Shown here piece by piece: positions 21,173 to 28,982 of a DNA stretch of 64,000 nt. Every line of letters begins with the position of its first letter. Within the stretch, counting starts at the first letter, position 1. This DNA is from an uncultured Spirochaetales bacterium (lineage in GTDB: Bacteria; Myxococcota_A; UBA9160; PR03). Position numbers and translations under genes: made by a program. The stretch is from NCBI GenBank assembly GCA_964353555.1, contig CAYGWM010000004.1, forward strand, positions 330 to 64,329, given 5' to 3'. Under the pieces are notes generated by a model that saw only the letters and a list, made by a program, of their open reading frames with translations, was not told the DNA's origin and did not search any database.

Positions 21173-22120
21173 GTGAGGCTGCGCGACATCGGCGAGTTTG
21201 GGCTGATCGATCGGATCGAGCGCGCGGTGCGACTTGCGGGTCCGGCACGCACTGTGGTGCTCGGGATCGGTGACGACGCTGCGCTGCTGCGATTGCGCGC
21301 GGGCGAAGATCTGGCGGCCTCCACGGACGCGTTGGTCGAGGACGTGCACTTCCGCTTTTCGAGCGAAGCGCCGCGCGCGATCGGCCGGCGGGCGCTCGCG
21401 GCGGCGCTCTCGGATCTCGCCGCGATGGGTGCGCGACCACTCGGTGTGCTCGCCGCGCTGGCGGCGCCGCCGACGCTTCCGCTCGCGCGCGCCGAAGGCA
21501 TCATGCGCGGGCTGCTCGATGGCGCCCGGCGCTGGCAGGCGCCGCTCGTCGGCGGCAACGTCGCGCGGGCGAGGCAGACCTCGCTCACGCTGACGGTGCT
21601 GGGCGCGGTGCGACGGGGTCGCGCGTTGACGCGCGCGAACGCGCAGCCCGGTGATCGCCTCTTCGTGACCGGAACGCTGGGCGGCGCGGCACTCGCGGTC
21701 GCAAGGGCGGCGCGAGGTGGCCGCGTGCGGGTTGCCCCCGAGCCACGCCTCGCAGCTGGGCAGTCGCTCGCACGCCTACGCGGAATCGGCGCTTGTATCG
21801 ACGTGTCGGACGGACTCATCGCAGACCTGGGTCATCTGCTGCGTTCGTCGCACGTCGGTGCGGAGGTCGATCCGACGCGGATCCCGCGCCCGATGGGCTT
21901 CGTCGCTGCGTGCGCCCGGGTCGGTGTGGATCCGCTGCGACTCTCGCTCGCGGGCGGTGAGGACTACGAGCTGCTCTTCACGCTGCGCCAGAGGGCGGCG
22001 ACCGCGTCGTCCCTTCGCCGCCGGCTCGGCGTTGCGGTCACCGAGATCGGCGCAATCACGGAGGAACCCGGCCTGCGCGGCATTCCGCAACTCGTGCGCC
22101 GAGGCTTCGCGCACTTCTAA
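21173..22120 (+). CDS. thiL: thiamine-monophosphate kinase
   Basis: GTG start. [10 protein letters not shown]...GIGDDAALL...[12 protein letters not shown]...DLAAMGA...DVSDGL...[10 protein letters not shown] (AIR-synthase-related ThiL motifs). Confidence 0.9.
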
Positions 22121-22230: not shown

Positions 22231-23505
22231 GTGCGCCTAGCGCTCTCGCACAAGTTCGTGCTCCGTTCGCTGCTGGTCGCGGCCGCTGCGGTTGCGTTCC
22301 CTCCCGTCGTCGCGGCGTCGGGCGTGGTCGTCGCGCCGTGGGCGACGGCGTTCGTCGCGCTCGGCGTGGGCGGCGCGCTCGGCTTCTTCTTGTCGCGGGA
22401 GCTGGGGCGGCAGTTCGAGCGGCTGCGCGGTGTCACCGATCGCATCCAGGCGGGTGACTTGCGCGCCGACGTCGAGGCGCGGCGCGTGCACTTTCCGGAC
22501 GAAACCGACGAGCTGGCCGCGAGCATCGCGGGCATGCTCGAGAGCCTGCGCGAGCTCGTCGAGCACGTGCAGCACGGCTCCGACCGGCTCTCATCCGCGG
22601 CGAACGAGTTGTCCAACTCGACGCAGCAGAGCCGCTCGGGCACCGAAGAAATCTCTGCGACGGTCGAGGGCGTTGCGAAGGGCGTCGAGCATCAGCAGGA
22701 ACTGCTCGAAGGCGCGCGCCGGCTGATCCACGACATCGCGCAGGCGATCGAACTGAACGCCGGCCGCGCGCGCGAAGCATTCGGTTTCTCCGCGGAGGCG
22801 AACCAGAAGGCGCACGCGGGCGTCGACGTGTCGCGACTCGCACTCGAGAAGATGAAGACCGTGTTCCAGCGCGTCGAGGACGCCGGCGGCCTGGTGTTCC
22901 GCCTCGAAGCCAAGACCCGTCACGTTCACCAGATCACCGAGATGATCCACAGCGTGGCGGGGCGAACGAATCTGCTTTCGCTCAACGCGTCGATCGAAGC
23001 GGCGCGCGCTGGCGAGGCCGGGCGCGGTTTCTCCGTGGTGGCCGATGAGATCCGCAAGCTCGCCGAGAGTGCGAGCCGCAGCGCCGAAGAGATCTCGAAG
23101 CTCGTCCACGAGATTCAGGCCGAGACGGCGCAGGTGGCCGACGAGATGCGCCTGTCGAGCCAGGTGATTGCCGAGGGGCGCGACGACGTGAACACGATCG
23201 CGCACTCGCTCGAGCAGATTCAGTCCGCCGTGTCCGAAGCCGCGTCGCGGGCCGAAGAGATCTTCCAGGAGGCCGACACGCAGGCGCGCGATACCGAACG
23301 TATGGTGACCTCCGTAGACGAGATCGCGCGCGTTGCCGTGACCAACGCCGACGCGGTGCGCGAAGTCGCCGGCGCCGCATCGGGTCTCTTCGAGACGATG
23401 GCGGAAACCGCCGCCTCCGCGCAGACGATGAGCGCACTCGCCGATGAGATGCGCGGCGCGCTGGGGCGCTTCCATGTCGAGCGCAACGGGCGGCCGCTGT
23501 CGTGA
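22231..23505 (+). CDS. methyl-accepting chemotaxis protein (two TM helices with a minimal loop, HAMP, MA domain)
   Basis: GTG start. Two adjacent N-terminal hydrophobic helices, then a HAMP domain ([14 protein letters not shown]). The highly conserved signalling hairpin is [35 protein letters not shown]. Confidence 0.9.
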
Positions 23506-23948
23506 CCGGCCCGGACGAGCGCCGTCTCGTGCTCTTCGAAGTCGGTGGTGGCGCCTACGCGTTGCCGATCGCCGACGTGATCGAGGTCACCGAGTGGTCG
23601 CAGCTCGCGGCGATTCCGACGCTGCCCGTGGGCGTCGCCGGCGTGATCAATCACCACGGCGACGCGCTGCCGATCGTTGCGCGCGACGCATTGCTCGAGG
23701 AACCGGCGACCGGGTCGCGGCCTGAACACGTTCTGGTGCTGGGCGCGCCCGGCGGTCAATCGGGACGCCTCGGCGTCCCGGTCGATCGGGTGCTGGGACT
23801 CGTGGACGCACCGGCTGGTCCGCCCCCGAGCGACGGACTCGTGGTGGAACGAAGACCGCTGCGCGGCCGCATCGTGGCTGTGCTCGACGCGGCGCGCCTG
23901 CTCGAACGAGCCCAGCGCGTGATCGAACAACAAGGAGGAAGAGCATGA
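23502..23948 (+). CDS. cheW: chemotaxis coupling protein CheW
   Basis: [21 protein letters not shown]...[15 protein letters not shown]; 4-nt overlap with the MCP stop. Confidence 0.88.
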
Positions 23949-24316
23949 CGGTTCGAGTCCTGGTCGCTGACGACGCGCGATTCATGCGGCAGCTGATTCG
24001 CGACATCATCGAGCCCGAAGGGTTCGAAGTGGTCGGCGAGGCGGCGGATGGCCGCGCTGCGGTCGAAGAGTTCTCGCGCTTGCAGCCCGACATCGTCACG
24101 ATGGACATCGTGATGCCGAAGCGCTCCGGCATCGACGCGGTGAAGGAGATCCTCGCACTCGATCCGAGCGCCAAGGTCGCGATGGTGAGCGCGCTCGGCC
24201 AGGAGGCGCTGGTGACGGAGGCGCTGCAGGCAGGCGCCTCCGACTACATCGTGAAGCCCTTCAAGCCCGACGCAGTGATCGAGACGCTGCGAAAGCTCGC
24301 CGAGAAGGCGCCGTAG
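23945..24316 (+). CDS. cheY: chemotaxis response regulator CheY
   Basis: Single REC domain: VLVADDARFMR...DIVTMDIVMPKRSG...SALG...YIVKPF. An ATGA overlap joins it to cheW. Confidence 0.9.
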   Translation: MTVRVLVADDARFMRQLIRDIIEPEGFEVVGEAADGRAAVEEFSRLQPDIVTMDIVMPKRSGIDAVKEILALDPSAKVAMVSALGQEALVTEALQAGASDYIVKPFKPDAVIETLRKLAEKAP

Positions 24317-24717
24317 TGGATATCGCCAAGTATCGGAACCTCTTCCTGGAAGAGGCGACCGAACACCTGGCCGAGATCGGGCAGGCGCTGCTCACGCTCG
24401 AGAAGGATTCGCGCGCCAGCGCGGAGATCGACACCGTGTTCCGCTTGATGCACTCGATGAAGGGCATGGGTGCGTCGCTCGGCTACGACGCGGTGAGCGA
24501 ACTCGCGCACCGCCTCGAAGACCGGCTCGGCGCCTGGCGCAAATGCGGGCGGATCGACGATGCAGAGGGCGTCGCGGTGTTGTTCCGCGGCCTCGAGAGC
24601 CTCGAGCGCATGGTGGCCGTCGTGCGCGATACCGGCGAGCCGCCGCCGTCCGATGCGGCGCTGCTCGCGGCGCTCGACGACCCCGAGTCGCCAAAAAAAG
24701 CGCGGCGCCTGTCGTAG
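24316..24717 (+). CDS. cheA: CheA histidine phosphotransfer (P1/Hpt) domain, zero-frame product (133 aa)
   Basis: GTG start overlapping the cheY stop. Hpt motif FRLMHSMKGMGASLG. The frame ends ...ESPKKARRLS-TAG, 18 nt after an A7 run. Confidence 0.85.
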   Translation: MDIAKYRNLFLEEATEHLAEIGQALLTLEKDSRASAEIDTVFRLMHSMKGMGASLGYDAVSELAHRLEDRLGAWRKCGRIDDAEGVAVLFRGLESLERMVAVVRDTGEPPPSDAALLAALDDPESPKKARRLS

Positions 24718-24736
24718 TCGAAACTACGGTGGGCGC
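24693..24736 (+). other. candidate -1 frameshift cassette: A AAA AAA heptamer, 5-nt spacer and 14-bp stem-loop
   Basis: The heptamer A_AAA_AAA (24693-24699) is in the correct phase of the Hpt frame (cc[A AAA AAA]gcg). The spacer is 24700-24704. The stem 24705-24718 pairs with 24723-24736 (11 Watson-Crick plus 3 G-U pairs, CGAA loop). The zero-frame TAG (24715-24717) lies inside the stem. The -1 frame is open and reads directly into the CheA dimerisation/kinase domains. Confidence 0.45.
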
Positions 24737-25934
24737 GTCGCCCGCTCGCGCGAACGTCGAGCCGGTGCGCGCGACCGTACCGCGACCGCCGCCCTCGGTG
24801 CGCGTTCCCAACGAGACGCTCGACCGATTCCTCAGCACGGTGGGTGAAGTGATCCTCACCACCAGCCAGTTGCGCACCGCGGCCGAGACCAACGGCATCG
24901 GTCAGGACGCGCGTCTGTCCGGCGGCTTCGATCAGATGGATCGCGTGGTCGGCGAACTGAAGCGTCGCGCGCTCGCGCTGCGCACGACACCGCTGCTGCG
25001 CGTGATGGAGAATCTCCCGCGTGTGGCGCGCGAGGTCGCGACGCGCACCGGCAAGCGCGTCGAGGTGACGCTCGTCGGCGCCGAGCTGGAGCTGGATCGC
25101 TCGATCCTCGATCGGCTCTACGACCCGCTCGTCCATCTGGTGCGCAACGCGGTCGATCACGGCCTCGAGTCGCCCGAAGCGCGCAAACAGGCCGGCAAGT
25201 CCGAGTCGGGTGCGCTGCGCATCGAGGCGACGCGCGAGAAGGACGCGATTCGCATCGCCGTCAGCGACGACGGCGCGGGCATGAACCTCGTCGCGCTGCG
25301 CGAGCGCTCGGTCGCGGCAGGGCTCGTCCACGCGACGCTCGCTGAGGATCTCCCGCCCGAAGAACTCGTCGAGCTGGCCTTTCGCCCGGGGCTTTCGACG
25401 GCCGCGCGCGTCTCGGACATTTCCGGCCGCGGCGTCGGCATGGATGCGGTTCGGTCGACGCTCGAGTCGCTCGGCGGCGCGGTGTGGCTGGAAACGCGCC
25501 CGGGCGCCGGGACCACCGCCATGCTGCGCGTTCCGATCGCGGCCGCGGTGCAGCGCGTACTGCTGGTCGTTCTCGGCGGCGAGACGGTCGCGGTCCCGAT
25601 CTCGAAAGTGGAGCGAATCGTGGAACTCGAGTCCGGCGCGATCGAGGGCAGCGCGGGCGAGTGCTTCGCGCTGATCGACGAGGAGCCGGTGCTCGTGCTC
25701 GATCTCGCGCAGCGACTCGGCTGGCCGACCGCAACGAACGCTGCGGCGCCACTCGTGATCGCGGATCTGCGTGGCGAGCGCGTCGCGCTCCGCGTCGACA
25801 AGCTCGCCGGTCAGCAGGACATCTATGTGAAGCCGCTGCCAGCACTGCTCGCGTCGCTGCGCGTGCTCGCAGGTCTGACGGTGCTCGGCGATGGCCGGCC
25901 CGTCTTCCTGCTCGACCTGAACCAGTTGCGCTAG
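24729..25934 (+). CDS. cheA: CheA kinase core (dimerisation P3, HATPase P4, CheW-like P5); either the -1 frame continuation of the Hpt ORF or an independent GTG start
   Basis: VRVPNETLDRFLSTVGEVIL (P3), N box LVHLVRNAVDHGLE, G1 box SDDGAGM, G2 box GRGVGMDAV, and P5 QRVLLVVLGGETVAVPISKVERI. The first in-frame start after the Hpt stop is GTG 24729. The track ATG at 24543 lies inside the Hpt ORF and is not credible. Confidence 0.85.
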   Translation: MGASPARANVEPVRATVPRPPPSVRVPNETLDRFLSTVGEVILTTSQLRTAAETNGIGQDARLSGGFDQMDRVVGELKRRALALRTTPLLRVMENLPRVAREVATRTGKRVEVTLVGAELELDRSILDRLYDPLVHLVRNAVDHGLESPEARKQAGKSESGALRIEATREKDAIRIAVSDDGAGMNLVALRERSVAAGLVHATLAEDLPPEELVELAFRPGLSTAARVSDISGRGVGMDAVRSTLESLGGAVWLETRPGAGTTAMLRVPIAAAVQRVLLVVLGGETVAVPISKVERIVELESGAIEGSAGECFALIDEEPVLVLDLAQRLGWPTATNAAAPLVIADLRGERVALRVDKLAGQQDIYVKPLPALLASLRVLAGLTVLGDGRPVFLLDLNQLR

Positions 25935-25946
25935 GAGCCTGCTCGC

Positions 25947-26519
25947 ATGCAGAACGTGGCGTTCCACGACGTTGGAGAAGAGTTGGATCGGCTCTGCGAA
26001 CTGGCCAACGTGGGCGCAGGTCACGCTGCGACGGCGCTGGCGCGGCTGATCCGCCGTCCGATCTGGATGTCGGTCCCACGCGTGCGGATGGGAACCGCAG
26101 CGACCGGCCTGACGCCGCTCGCGGACGACGACGCCTGGATCTTCTTCGCAGTGGAGGGCGCGATGGGCGGCGCGCTCGTGTTGCGACTGCCGGGTTCGTC
26201 GCGCCACCTGCTCGTTCACGAGCTGGTCGGCGCCGAGGCTTCGGCGTCGCACGCGGAGTCCGCGTTGCGCGAGGTGGGCAACATCCTGGCTTCGCACGCG
26301 CTCTCCGCGGTCGCCGATCTCGTGGGTACGCGCGCGCTGCCATCGCTACCGAGCCTGGTCTTCGACGCGGCGGGTCCTGCGCTCGCTGCGTGGCGAACGC
26401 GCGCGGTGGGCCGTGTCTGCATCGAGACGCACCTGGTCGACGAAGCAGGGCTCTCGCACGTCGAGCTGGTGTGGATTCCGGCGGAGGTTCCCGGCGAAGC
26501 AGCACGCGGGCCCTTCTGA
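25947..26519 (+). CDS. cheC: CheY-P phosphatase CheC
   Basis: Both CheC active-site motifs D/S-x3-E-x2-N-x22-P are present with exact spacing: DRLCELAN-x22-P and SALREVGN-x22-P. The block ELANVGAGHAATALARL is typical of CheC. Confidence 0.8.
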   Translation: MQNVAFHDVGEELDRLCELANVGAGHAATALARLIRRPIWMSVPRVRMGTAATGLTPLADDDAWIFFAVEGAMGGALVLRLPGSSRHLLVHELVGAEASASHAESALREVGNILASHALSAVADLVGTRALPSLPSLVFDAAGPALAAWRTRAVGRVCIETHLVDEAGLSHVELVWIPAEVPGEAARGPF

Positions 26520-26533
26520 TACCGTGCGCCGCC

Positions 26534-27283
26534 GTGGATCGCGATCGACTGCGAGCGTTGCTCGAGGGCGTGCAGCGCGGCGAGGTGGAACCCTCGGAGG
26601 CGCTCGACCGCCTCGCCCATCTCCCCTTCGTCGACACGCCGCACGCGCGCGTCGATACGCATCGCGCGCTGCGGTCGGGTCTACCCGAGGTCGTGTATGG
26701 GCCGGGCAAGACGGTCCAACAGATCGCCGAGGTCGTGCGCGCGCAGCGCGCCGCCGGACTCTCCGTGCTGGTGACGCGCGTCGATCCCGCCATCGCCGAC
26801 GCGGTACTGCGCGAGGTGCCTGGCGGCGAGCACGACGTTCCCGCGCGGCTGCTCTGCTACGCCGACGGCGAGGCGCCGATCCGTGGCAAAGGCACGGTGC
26901 TGGTGGTGTCTGCCGGAACCTCGGATCTCCCCGTGGCAGCCGAGGCGGCCGGCGTCGCGCGGCACTACGGGAATCCGGTCGAGACGCTGCATGACGTCGG
27001 TGTCGCCGGGATCCACCGTCTGCTCGCGTCCTCGGAGCAGCTCCGCAAGGCGCGCGTGTTGATCGTGGTGGCGGGGATGGAAGGCGCGCTGCCGTCGGTG
27101 GTGGGCGGCATGGTCGACAAGCCGGTGATCGCCGTGCCGACCAGCGTCGGCTATGGCGCGTCGTTCGGCGGCGTTGCCGCGCTGCTCGGCATGCTGACCA
27201 GCTGTGCGTCGAACGTGTGTGTAGTCAACATCGACAACGGATTCGGGGCCGCCCATGTCGCAACGCTCATCAACCGCCTCTAG
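26534..27283 (+). CDS. larB: nickel-pincer cofactor biosynthesis protein LarB (PurE-like carboxylase/hydrolase)
   Basis: Internal GTG of a long track ORF. VVYGPGKT...VLVVSAGTSDLPVAAEAA...HDVGVAGIHRLL...VVAGMEGALPSVVGGMVDKPVIAVPTSVGYGASFGGVAALLGMLTSCASNVCVVNIDNGFGAA closely matches the LarB family. Confidence 0.85.
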   Translation: MDRDRLRALLEGVQRGEVEPSEALDRLAHLPFVDTPHARVDTHRALRSGLPEVVYGPGKTVQQIAEVVRAQRAAGLSVLVTRVDPAIADAVLREVPGGEHDVPARLLCYADGEAPIRGKGTVLVVSAGTSDLPVAAEAAGVARHYGNPVETLHDVGVAGIHRLLASSEQLRKARVLIVVAGMEGALPSVVGGMVDKPVIAVPTSVGYGASFGGVAALLGMLTSCASNVCVVNIDNGFGAAHVATLINRL

Positions 27284-28697
27284 CAAATCCGGGAAGCGGC
27301 GAAGTGCCGAGAGCGTCGCAGCGCGAAGCGCGTCGAAGTCGAAGCCGGATGCGGTCCAGCATGCCGCGGCGGGACCGCGAATCCTGCACCTCGACGCATT
27401 CTCGGGCATCGCGGGCAACATGTTGCTCGGCGCACTGCTCGATCTCGGACTTCCCAAGCGCGTACTCGAGGCCGACCTGGCCGGCCTCGACGTTCCGTTC
27501 CGGCTCGCCGTGACGCGCGTCACGCGCGGCCCGCTCGACGCCAACTACGTCGAAGTGCTGCTCCCGCAGCCGCGACCGGGGCGCGCCCGCGTACATCGCC
27601 ACGGCCGGCTCGTGCATGCGCACGAGCATGGCGACGATCAGCATCGCCATGGCCGCCACGAGCATTTGCACGATCACGGCCGGACCTATCGCGAGATCCG
27701 CCGGTTGATCTCGCGCGCGAAGCTGACGCCCAGCGTGCGCGACCGTGCGCTCGCGATCTTCGAGGCGCTCGCGACCGCCGAGGCGCGCGTGCACGGCACG
27801 GCGGTCGACGACGTGCACTTCCACGAAGTGGGGGCGGTGGACGCGATCGTGGACGTCACCGGCGTTGCCGTCGGTCTGCATCGGCTGGGAATCGAACGCA
27901 TCACCTGTTCGCCGCTGCCGCTCGGGCACGGTTCGGTCAGCTCCGATCACGGTATGCTGCCGCTGCCGGCGCCGGCGACCCTCGAGCTGCTGCGCGGTGT
28001 CCCGATCGTTCCGGCCGGCATCGATTGGGAAACGGTGACGCCGACCGGCGCGGCGATCGCGCGCACGATCGTCGACGAATTCTGCACGTTGCCCGCCATG
28101 CACGTCGAAGCGATCGGGATCGGCGCGGGCAACGAGCGCGCGGGAGGTCTGCCCAACGTGCTGCGTGCCGTGCTCGGTCGCGGCGCGGGTTTCGGCGGGG
28201 ATCGCGTCGTGGTGCTGGAAACGCACGTCGACGACCTCAATCCCGAGCACTTCGAGTATCTGATGGAGCGTCTCTTCGAAGCCGGCGCGCTCGACGTCGC
28301 GCTGATGCATCTGCAGATGAAGAAGAATCGACCGGGTTTTGCGATCCGCGTGCTCGCGCGCCCGGCGGAACGCGAGGTGCTGGCTCGCGTGCTCTTCGCA
28401 GAGTCCACCACGCTCGGCGTGCGTGTCGCCGAGATGGAGCGCGTCGTGCTGACGCGCGAGGAACGCAAGGTTGCGACGCCATTCGGTTCGATCCGCGTCA
28501 AGATCGCGCGCGACCCGGGCGGTCGCGGCACGCCGTCGGCGGAATACGAGGACTGCAAGGTTGCGGCGAGACGCGCTGGTGTGCCGCTCCGGGAGGTGGT
28601 GCGTGCGGCCGAGGAGGCAGCCCGGATCCGCAATGGGATGGCCGTCGCGAGCAAACCAAATCGGCGCCCACGCCCGGTGAAGCGCCGGACGCGTTGA
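27255..28697 (+). CDS. larC: nickel insertion protein LarC (pyridinium-3,5-bisthiocarboxylate mononucleotide nickel chelatase, DUF111)
   Basis: ILHLDAFSGIAGNMLLGALLDLG and a His-rich nickel-binding stretch HRHGRLVHAHEHGDDQHRHGRHEHLHDHGR, then FHEVGAVDAIVD and a C-terminal DUF111 domain. It overlaps larB by 29 nt and has no alternative in-frame start. Confidence 0.85.
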   Translation: MSQRSSTASSKSGKRRSAESVAARSASKSKPDAVQHAAAGPRILHLDAFSGIAGNMLLGALLDLGLPKRVLEADLAGLDVPFRLAVTRVTRGPLDANYVEVLLPQPRPGRARVHRHGRLVHAHEHGDDQHRHGRHEHLHDHGRTYREIRRLISRAKLTPSVRDRALAIFEALATAEARVHGTAVDDVHFHEVGAVDAIVDVTGVAVGLHRLGIERITCSPLPLGHGSVSSDHGMLPLPAPATLELLRGVPIVPAGIDWETVTPTGAAIARTIVDEFCTLPAMHVEAIGIGAGNERAGGLPNVLRAVLGRGAGFGGDRVVVLETHVDDLNPEHFEYLMERLFEAGALDVALMHLQMKKNRPGFAIRVLARPAEREVLARVLFAESTTLGVRVAEMERVVLTREERKVATPFGSIRVKIARDPGGRGTPSAEYEDCKVAARRAGVPLREVVRAAEEAARIRNGMAVASKPNRRPRPVKRRTR

Positions 28698-28723
28698 CAA
28701 GCCCGCTCCGATCCTCCTAGCAT
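28694..28723 (+). promoter_or_regulatory. sigma70-type promoter for the histone-fold gene (TTGACA-18 nt-TAGCAT)
   Basis: A perfect -35 TTGACA at 28694-28699 includes the larC TGA. An 18-nt spacer precedes the -10 TAGCAT at 28718-28723. A GGAGGG Shine-Dalgarno at 28745-28750 lies 7 nt before ATG 28758. Confidence 0.4.
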
Positions 28724-28757
28724 GGCCGCTCACTTCAAAGGGCTGGAGGGTCTTTCG

Positions 28758-28982
28758 ATGGGGGAGCTTCCCAACGCGGTGGTCAAGCGGCTACTCGCCC
28801 AGCATGGGGGCGGGCTTCGCGTTTCTGGTTCGGCCATTGATGCGGCCGTCAAAGCGACCGAGGAATACCTCGCGCGGCTCGCGCGCGAATCGCAGGCGCT
28901 CGCCGTGGCCGACAAGCGCAAGACGGTGATGGACCACGACATCACCAAGGCGCGCGCCAAGATCGAGTCCGGCGGACTCTGA
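28758..28982 (+). CDS. histone-fold DNA-binding protein (archaeal HMf / bacterial Bd0055-like singlet histone), 74 aa
   Basis: MGELPNAVVKRLLAQHGGGLRVSGSAIDAAVKATEEYLARLARESQALAVADKRKTVMDHDITKA aligns by eye along its whole length with HMfB ([62 protein letters not shown]). The RVS and RKT(V/I)...DI landmarks are included. The internal ATG with a good SD is preferred over the track start at 28722. Confidence 0.75.
   Translation: MGELPNAVVKRLLAQHGGGLRVSGSAIDAAVKATEEYLARLARESQALAVADKRKTVMDHDITKARAKIESGGL

Follow-up and report, generated by a model that had tools for sequence, protein, structure and literature searches.

A stretch of 64,000 nucleotides of contig CAYGWM010000004.1 (assembly GCA_964353555.1), here called the window, carries a chemosensory gene cluster in which the histidine kinase gene cheA is laid out in two reading frames, with the phosphotransfer domain (Hpt or P1) in one frame and the kinase core in the -1 frame relative to it. 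Our analysis suggests that this cheA is probably decoded with a programmed -1 ribosomal frameshift (-1 PRF) at an A AAA AAA heptamer, with a 3' hairpin stimulating the shift. The initial annotation of this DNA had raised the same possibility next to two others, an assembly indel in a normal cheA (A8 instead of A7) and a genuinely split gene whose core starts at GTG 24729, and the programmed frameshift has emerged as the best supported of the three. The observations that carry it are the anatomy of the locus, which is shared by more than 100 related lineages, and the selection acting on both halves and, in particular, the conservation of the heptamer in orthologues, its swap for G GGA AAA in a sublineage and the lack of an alternative start for the core. 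From these we infer the ribosomal nature of the slippage, its efficiency and the role of the free P1 domain.

A conserved A7 tract between Hpt and kinase core

Read directly from the sequence, the zero-frame Hpt open reading frame (ORF; 24316..24717, + strand) starts with GTG, ends with the TAG at 24715-24717 and encodes the 133 aa that standard decoding would produce, 128 of which belong to P1 and are followed by the tail ARRLS. Pfam places Hpt over residues 6-98 of the translation, which contains the phospho-His motif HxxKG as FRLMHSMKGMG. The -1 frame is uninterrupted across the A7 site and reaches 25934; by translation and Pfam, this continuation (24699..25934, + strand) consists of a linker, SAAPVVVETTVGASPAR..., followed by P3 (dimerisation), P4 (HATPase) and P5 (CheW-like). 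Joining both frames conceptually gives a protein of 539 aa with H-kinase_dim at 161-220, HATPase_c at 270-408 and CheW at 415-538, so that all four Pfam domains of the CheA class (Hpt, dimerisation, HATPase_c and CheW-like) are found above cut-offs in the fusion, while a P2 domain is absent according to Pfam. The initial annotation had described the Hpt ORF, the A7 run and its phase, the hairpin and an open -1 frame running into the dimerisation, kinase and CheW-like domains, and all of these are present exactly where it had placed them.

The heptamer itself occupies 24693..24699 (+ strand) and is read in the Hpt frame as CC[A AAA AAA]GCG, which corresponds to the canonical X XXY YYZ phase. 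It had been noticed earlier as the only long A homopolymer of this DNA, and it is indeed the sole run of at least six A in the 64 kb, whose G+C content lies between 65 and 72% across 4-kb segments. The occurrence of one A7 in 64 kb is by itself not rare for this composition (at least one in 24 of 100 shuffles). Unlike this bare occurrence, the phase and the codon choice of the heptamer are unusual: in the local codon usage, AAA accounts for 11% of Lys codons, CCA for 6.6% of Pro codons and A for 7% of third positions, and the probability of CCA AAA AAA given P-K-K is ~0.0008. The decisive argument that the site did not arise by chance is the comparative one.

For this comparison, the fused 539-aa protein and the Hpt ORF were each used as protein search queries. 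In total, ~45 related loci with DNA were collected, 25 of which, from independent JGI, ENA, Logan and NCBI assemblies, carry an A7-type tract; a metagenome scan with the Hpt query gave 14 loci, and exact-protein look-ups were relied on instead. All matches with at least 78% identity to the fused protein (>50 clusters from the same four sources) lack Hpt and are 378-401 aa long, and full-length proteins were seen only at 64% identity or less to the 539-aa query. Conversely, the best 120 Hpt clusters (66-100% identity) are without exception stand-alone Hpt proteins of 130-157 aa, and in 117 of these the C-terminus consists of KK and another 3-10 residues.

At the DNA level, N NA AAA AAA is present in a common phase in each of the 25 A7-type loci and the core lies in the -1 frame in every case. 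The zero-frame stop is usually found six codons past the heptamer, and the codon preceding AAA AAA varies (CCA, GCA, GGA, ACA, GAA) and yet always ends in A. The contigs in question stem from different samples and were built by different assemblers; one of them, L101, is of long-read style. On this contig, an AIRS-family gene and a gene for a methyl-accepting chemotaxis protein (MCP) are called as one 763-aa protein (1-1208), probably because of an assembly indel; its cheA junction is still A7.

Because A7 recurs in the same phase in 25 of 25 loci from independent samples and assemblers, and as none of the protein clusters with at least 78% identity is full length, a sequencing error, i.e. the A8 suggested earlier as the true sequence, is excluded. 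Homopolymers are admittedly hot spots for replication slippage as well as for sequencing error, and the tract does range from A7 to A11 among distant family members, which might be taken to indicate a phase-variable tract, a miscounted A8 or a decaying pseudogene. Within the clade of the window, however, the tract is invariably an out-of-frame A7 across dozens of independent samples and assemblers, and none of the best 120 Hpt clusters is fused. We therefore regard this group of explanations as extremely improbable, and assembly error, pseudogene and phase variation were rejected on the basis of the invariant A7, the lack of fused clusters, and the purifying selection and the G GGA AAA variant described below.

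Start codons and selection in the kinase core

If the kinase core were translated from a start of its own, as in a genuinely split CheA, initiation would have to take place at GTG 24729 or at another codon, or by termination-reinitiation after the TAG, and P1 would then be phosphorylated in trans. The annotation of two genes by gene callers at all of these loci speaks for such an arrangement, as does the presence, in the window, of a GTG only 12 nt past the TAG, with which the 401-aa call begins; moreover, biochemistry would allow a CheA core to phosphorylate a free P1 in trans. This GTG is, however, not kept in most other loci, where, as in L081, GCG takes its place, the core starts chosen by gene callers differ between loci (401, 394, 389, 385, 383 or 378 aa) and none of the candidate start positions examined, which are themselves not conserved, is preceded by a motif resembling a Shine-Dalgarno (SD) sequence. 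Start codons were scanned from the upstream -1 stop onwards, in L094 over all 414 open nt. In three loci (L091, L092 and L094) the -1 frame contains no ATG, GTG or TTG until 13-16 codons beyond RVPNETLDRF, the P3 motif that is invariant across the family, so that a start is missing both before this motif and within the first 13-16 codons that follow it. Termination-reinitiation was rejected since several loci have no start codon near the TAG. An independent start would in addition leave unexplained the conserved NNA-AAA-AAA in a genome of ~69-70% G+C, the exchange of one heptamer for another and the conservation of the -1-frame linker directly after the heptamer (SAAPAVVE), in which changes are synonymous in the -1 frame. 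A split gene starting at GTG 24729, as considered in the initial annotation, is thus not supported, and we consider a split CheA in general to be very unlikely.

Where, then, do ribosomes enter the -1 frame? In L088, L097 and L106 the open stretch of this frame begins only 6-36 nt before the heptamer and therefore entry must occur at or after the site. Position 24704 is occupied by G, T, A or C among the relatives. All four give Ala (GCN) when read in the -1 frame, whereas the zero frame would encode R, L, Q or P; as this variation is silent only in the -1 frame, the -1 frame is the selected reading right after the heptamer. In addition, when 11 fused genes were aligned codon by codon, synonymous identity reaches 0.89-0.93 in windows over the heptamer and hairpin as compared to 0.71 gene-wide, and the top 10 of 529 nine-codon windows are all located over the heptamer and the next ~10 codons.

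Both halves of the gene are under selection, with dN/dS values of 0.09-0.27 for the core and 0.19-0.38 for Hpt. The low values of the core indicate purifying selection on a functional kinase core and therefore it is not a decaying remnant, which argues against a pseudogene.

Hairpin, heptamer swap and the nature of the proposed slippage

A spacer of 5 nt (24700..24704, + strand) separates the heptamer from a candidate stimulatory hairpin at 24705..24736 (+ strand), in which 24705-24718 pairs with 24723-24736 around a CGAA loop. The stem has 14 bp (11 Watson-Crick and 3 G-U pairs) and contains the zero-frame TAG within its 5' arm. Position, loop and spacer agree with the hairpin drawn in the initial annotation, and the 36-nt fold has a free energy of -20.9 kcal/mol (z = -4.2), which was equalled by 1 of 200 shuffles. 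When the downstream 42-nt window of each site was ranked among all the windows of its own locus, the hairpin was found in the top 5% of same-region windows here and in the top 1% or better in close relatives. Overall, 15 of 25 A7/A8 loci have a downstream window in the local top 6%, as compared to none of the six A9-A11 loci. Subclades share a common 5' segment, which lies 5-6 nt past the heptamer and pairs with differing 3' arms, and in one of them the hairpin has 9 bp, two of them compensatory, and a 13-nt spacer. In the subclade of the window, pairing extends to 96% of cells across 6 distinct relatives and all changes are one-sided, so that this hairpin is supported by conservation and stability and not by covariation. 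As for the co-occurrence of the three elements in orthologues, about which the initial annotation had asked, heptamer and frame break occur together, and the hairpin accompanies them in most, although not in all, of the A7 relatives. Searches against Rfam returned nothing at E values up to 10 in 24500-24900 and nothing at gathering score in the 64-kb window, so that the DNA contains no frameshift element of a known family.

The site thus combines the features of known -1 PRF sites, i.e. a phased heptamer, a structure ~5-9 nt downstream, a -1 ORF that is needed and has no start of its own, and conservation with suppressed synonymous variation. An indication that the slippage is ribosomal comes from a heptamer swap. 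The 3 of the best 120 Hpt clusters that do not end in KK end in G-K-A... instead, and in the DNA of two of them (L113 and L114, at 2375-2381 in each) the site reads CC[G GGA AAA]GCG and GC[G GGA AAA]GCG, respectively, with position and phase matching the A7 site. Their -1 continuation, SEGARPLA..., parallels the SAGARPLA... of their A7 relatives. In this sublineage, a GGCGCG...CGCGCC hairpin begins 5 nt downstream. A swap between two canonical X XXY YYZ heptamers is the classic comparative signature of -1 PRF; it favours ribosomal slippage over slippage of RNA polymerase or of DNA because G3A4 is no homopolymer and a poor slippage substrate. Nor can G GGA AAA come from a homopolymer miscount.

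The alternative that deserves most attention is programmed transcriptional slippage, in which RNA polymerase adds one A in a fraction of transcripts, so that the resulting A8 mRNAs are translated into the fused CheA in the standard way. The outcome would be the same pair of proteins, and both mechanisms could act side by side. The site is a homopolymer, and distant family members have A9, A10 or A11 at the same linker position and no exceptional downstream hairpin; runs of nine A/T slip efficiently in bacteria, and Thermus dnaX makes use of this, according to PMC5009743. The typical feature of transcriptional slippage is, however, a tract of ~9 A/T or a shorter motif combined with an upstream nascent-RNA hairpin, and the window has only A7, which is short for efficiency, although the A9-A11 relatives do have the required length. 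The G GGA AAA of L113 and L114 even has only four A, and the X XXY YYZ phase is strict in all A7 loci. Furthermore, the conserved structure lies downstream, whereas a nascent-RNA stem-loop would be needed upstream. Upstream 42-nt windows, scored for each locus, revealed no exceptional structure just before the A-run, which argues against hairpin-assisted transcriptional slippage. Taken together, we consider transcriptional slippage to be an unlikely explanation for the window, but clearly the most serious competitor of a ribosomal frameshift.

Several points weigh against a ribosomal frameshift stimulated by the hairpin. The 76-nt context of the hairpin folds no better than shuffles (z = -0.88), the downstream structure is unexceptional in ~10 of the 25 A7/A8 relatives (among them L084, L103, L090, L095, L025 and L004) and there are no compensatory double changes among the 6 distinct relatives of the window's hairpin subclade. 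A conserved upstream SD-like stimulator was not seen either; GGAG is present in some relatives, but its sequence and spacing are not kept. A run of seven A can, moreover, let RNA polymerase slip at a low level, which may contribute here. All relatives are uncultured metagenome-assembled genomes (MAGs) or metagenome contigs, and the 539-aa trans-frame protein is a prediction from their and the window's sequence. Finally, the extra shiftiness of AAG in such heptamers depends on a single tRNA-Lys. According to PMC5009743, A AAA AAA shifts less readily than A AAA AAG in E. coli, and a single tRNA-Lys is used by only about half of bacteria.

Under a programmed ribosomal frameshift, the gene would be decoded as follows. 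Ribosomes translating P1 would arrive at CC-A-AAA-AAA with the hairpin (5 nt downstream) positioned at the mRNA entry channel, and in a fraction of them the two tRNA-Lys would slip back by one base into the -1 frame. These ribosomes would continue through the linker into the P3-P4-P5 core and produce the P2-less CheA of 539 aa, with the predicted trans-frame junction ...DDPESPKKSAAPVVVETTVGASPAR / ESPKK|SAAPVVVE, as opposed to the zero-frame end ...SPKKARRLS. Unshifted ribosomes would add ARRLS, stop at the TAG and release a free P1/Hpt protein of 133 aa. Two products would thus be made from one gene at a ratio set by the frameshift efficiency, and each kinase core made would carry its own P1. 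The free P1 might serve as a trans-phosphorylated shuttle to CheY or as a phosphate buffer.

The slippery tract is not restricted to the clade of the window. In all complete loci from GTDB genomes at 43-63% identity (L001, L002, L004-L009, L025 and L033), Hpt is likewise connected to the core by a -1 step at an A-run of 7-9; the more distant CheAs of Geobacter, Bacillota and Myxococcaceae are in one frame and have no such tract between Hpt and core. Relatives with A9-A11 (58-64% identity) carry the tract at the matching position of the P1-P3 linker and have no exceptional downstream hairpin. In detail, A9 is out of frame in L001, L002 and L006, whereas A10 (L108-L111) and A11 (L112) are in frame, with a -1-frame TGA 2-3 codons later in each. 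Among 55 in-frame full-length proteins of the family, KKK precedes S, R, T or I, residues whose codons begin with A, in 29 cases, and KK precedes S in one further case.

The slippery tract is hence kept in frame as well as out of frame, and either default gives the same pair of products. The longer tracts without an exceptional hairpin suggest a variation in mechanism like that of dnaX, with RNA-polymerase slippage or a reversed arrangement. It is conceivable, although we would stop short of calling it probable, that this P2-less CheA family of uncultured Myxococcota-like bacteria keeps a slippery tract between P1 and P3 in order to make free P1 and fused kinase by interchangeable routes. In such a scheme, A AAA AAA or G GGA AAA with a hairpin may work by -1 PRF, with free P1 as the default product; the out-of-frame A9 would probably be read through by RNA-polymerase slippage; and the in-frame A10 and A11 may give full-length CheA by default and free P1 by slippage, as in E. 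coli dnaX.

Gene neighbourhood, known systems and implications

The cheA locus is part of an operon with the order MCP, CheW, CheY, Hpt/core and CheC-like gene, all on the + strand. The MCP gene (22231-23505; HAMP and MCPsignal) and cheW (23502-23948) were assigned by Pfam and by synteny with the relatives, the response regulator gene cheY (23945..24316) by Pfam Response_reg (E = 2.8e-30) and the CheC-like phosphatase gene, the last of the cluster (25947..26519), by Pfam CheC (E = 7.6e-15). The stop codon of cheY overlaps the start codon of Hpt (GTAGTG). From cheW to the CheC-like gene, the order is identical in all of the relatives that were examined.

Neither CheB nor CheR is encoded next to the cluster. 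According to Pfam, it is flanked by an AIRS-family gene (21173-22120, +) on one side and by a LarB-like (AIRC; 26534-27283, +) and a LarC gene (Ni_insertion; 27255-28697, +) on the other. LarB and LarC follow the cluster in most relatives as well, and the AIRS-family gene precedes it wherever the flank is long enough. Just downstream of the LarC-like gene, an 86-aa histone-fold protein is encoded (28722-28982, +; Pfam Histone and CBFD_NFYB_HMF), so that this Myxococcota-like MAG carries a histone-fold gene of bacterial origin, which is also found after the cluster in L081, L084 and L102. A tRNA scan of the whole 64-kb window gave neither tRNA nor tmRNA genes.

Conserved -1 frameshifting in bacterial chromosomal genes outside of mobile elements and phages is rare, with dnaX, copA, csoS2 and cdd as examples. 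The closest parallel to the proposed decoding of cheA is E. coli dnaX (tau/gamma), with A AAA AAG, a 3' stem-loop and a 5' SD. In both cases, a heptamer of Lys codons is followed by a hairpin after a few nt, and a single chromosomal gene encodes two products, one short and one long (in cheA as proposed), with a common N-terminus. The range of dnaX variants comprises PRF in E. coli, transcriptional slippage at a tract of nine in Thermus thermophilus and reversed arrangements elsewhere (PMC5009743), and it appears to be mirrored in the CheA family by heptamer plus hairpin, A9-A11 tracts that lack a hairpin, and both default frames. The two differ in that the shifted product is the short one in E. 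coli dnaX and would be the long one in cheA, in the heptamer (A AAA AAG versus A AAA AAA) and in the 5' SD, as opposed to no conserved SD stimulator in cheA. Moreover, dnaX encodes a replication factor and cheA a signalling kinase, and no homology is implied.

OrfA/OrfAB of the IS3 family (IS911, IS3) and the tail chaperones G/GT of phages resemble the proposed decoding of cheA in their default short protein, to which a -1 shift at an A-rich heptamer with a 3' stem-loop fuses a downstream domain, and in a downstream ORF without an efficient start of its own; clusters of A AAA AAA with a stem-loop have been proven in IS elements (PMC4066793). Unlike these, cheA belongs to no mobile element or phage but to a chemosensory operon, and its products are histidine kinase domains.

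Among chemotaxis kinases, E. coli CheA-L and CheA-S arise by alternative translation initiation, with an internal start that yields a P1-truncated kinase as the extra product. One cheA thus gives two isoforms differing in P1, and the stoichiometry of P1 to core is a theme common to both systems; however, the extra product in E. coli is a truncated kinase made from an internal start, whereas here it would be free P1 made by recoding. CheA3/CheA4 of Rhodobacter sphaeroides and experiments with liberated P1 in E. coli are comparable in that a P3-P4-P5 core could phosphorylate a free Hpt/P1 in trans. These are, however, two independently initiated genes, while in the present case the core has no conserved start or ribosome-binding site and a conserved slippery site links the two frames.

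In the literature searched, the only frameshift connected with cheA is a +1 prediction for E. coli by FSscan (PMC2790909), which is unrelated: the hotspot CCC CGG C was predicted in the intact E. coli gene and tested only as a 16-nt cassette, it differs in direction and position, and neither conservation nor a product is reported there. CheA or chemotaxis is not mentioned in the first 300,000 of ~430,000 characters of a comprehensive recoding review, in the main text of the GeneTack survey of conserved frameshifts or in the E. coli heptamer survey. As far as the literature searched shows, cheA would hence be a new cellular gene family for a known recoding mechanism and, if our reading is true, the first example among two-component and chemotaxis kinases.

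For annotation, this would mean that hundreds of MAG entries listing an 'Hpt domain protein' and a 'CheA' or 'CheW' as two genes need to be changed. For the cell, it would mean that the stoichiometry between a free phosphotransfer domain and the kinase core may be fixed at translation. The series of A7 with hairpin, G GGA AAA and A9-A11 would provide a natural system for the replacement of ribosomal by transcriptional slippage and vice versa. If the interchangeable routes considered above do exist in this family, they would show, as a series formed naturally in evolution, how recoding mechanisms vary within one signalling gene, and the ratio of free P1 to kinase would be a selected parameter of the chemosensory pathway.

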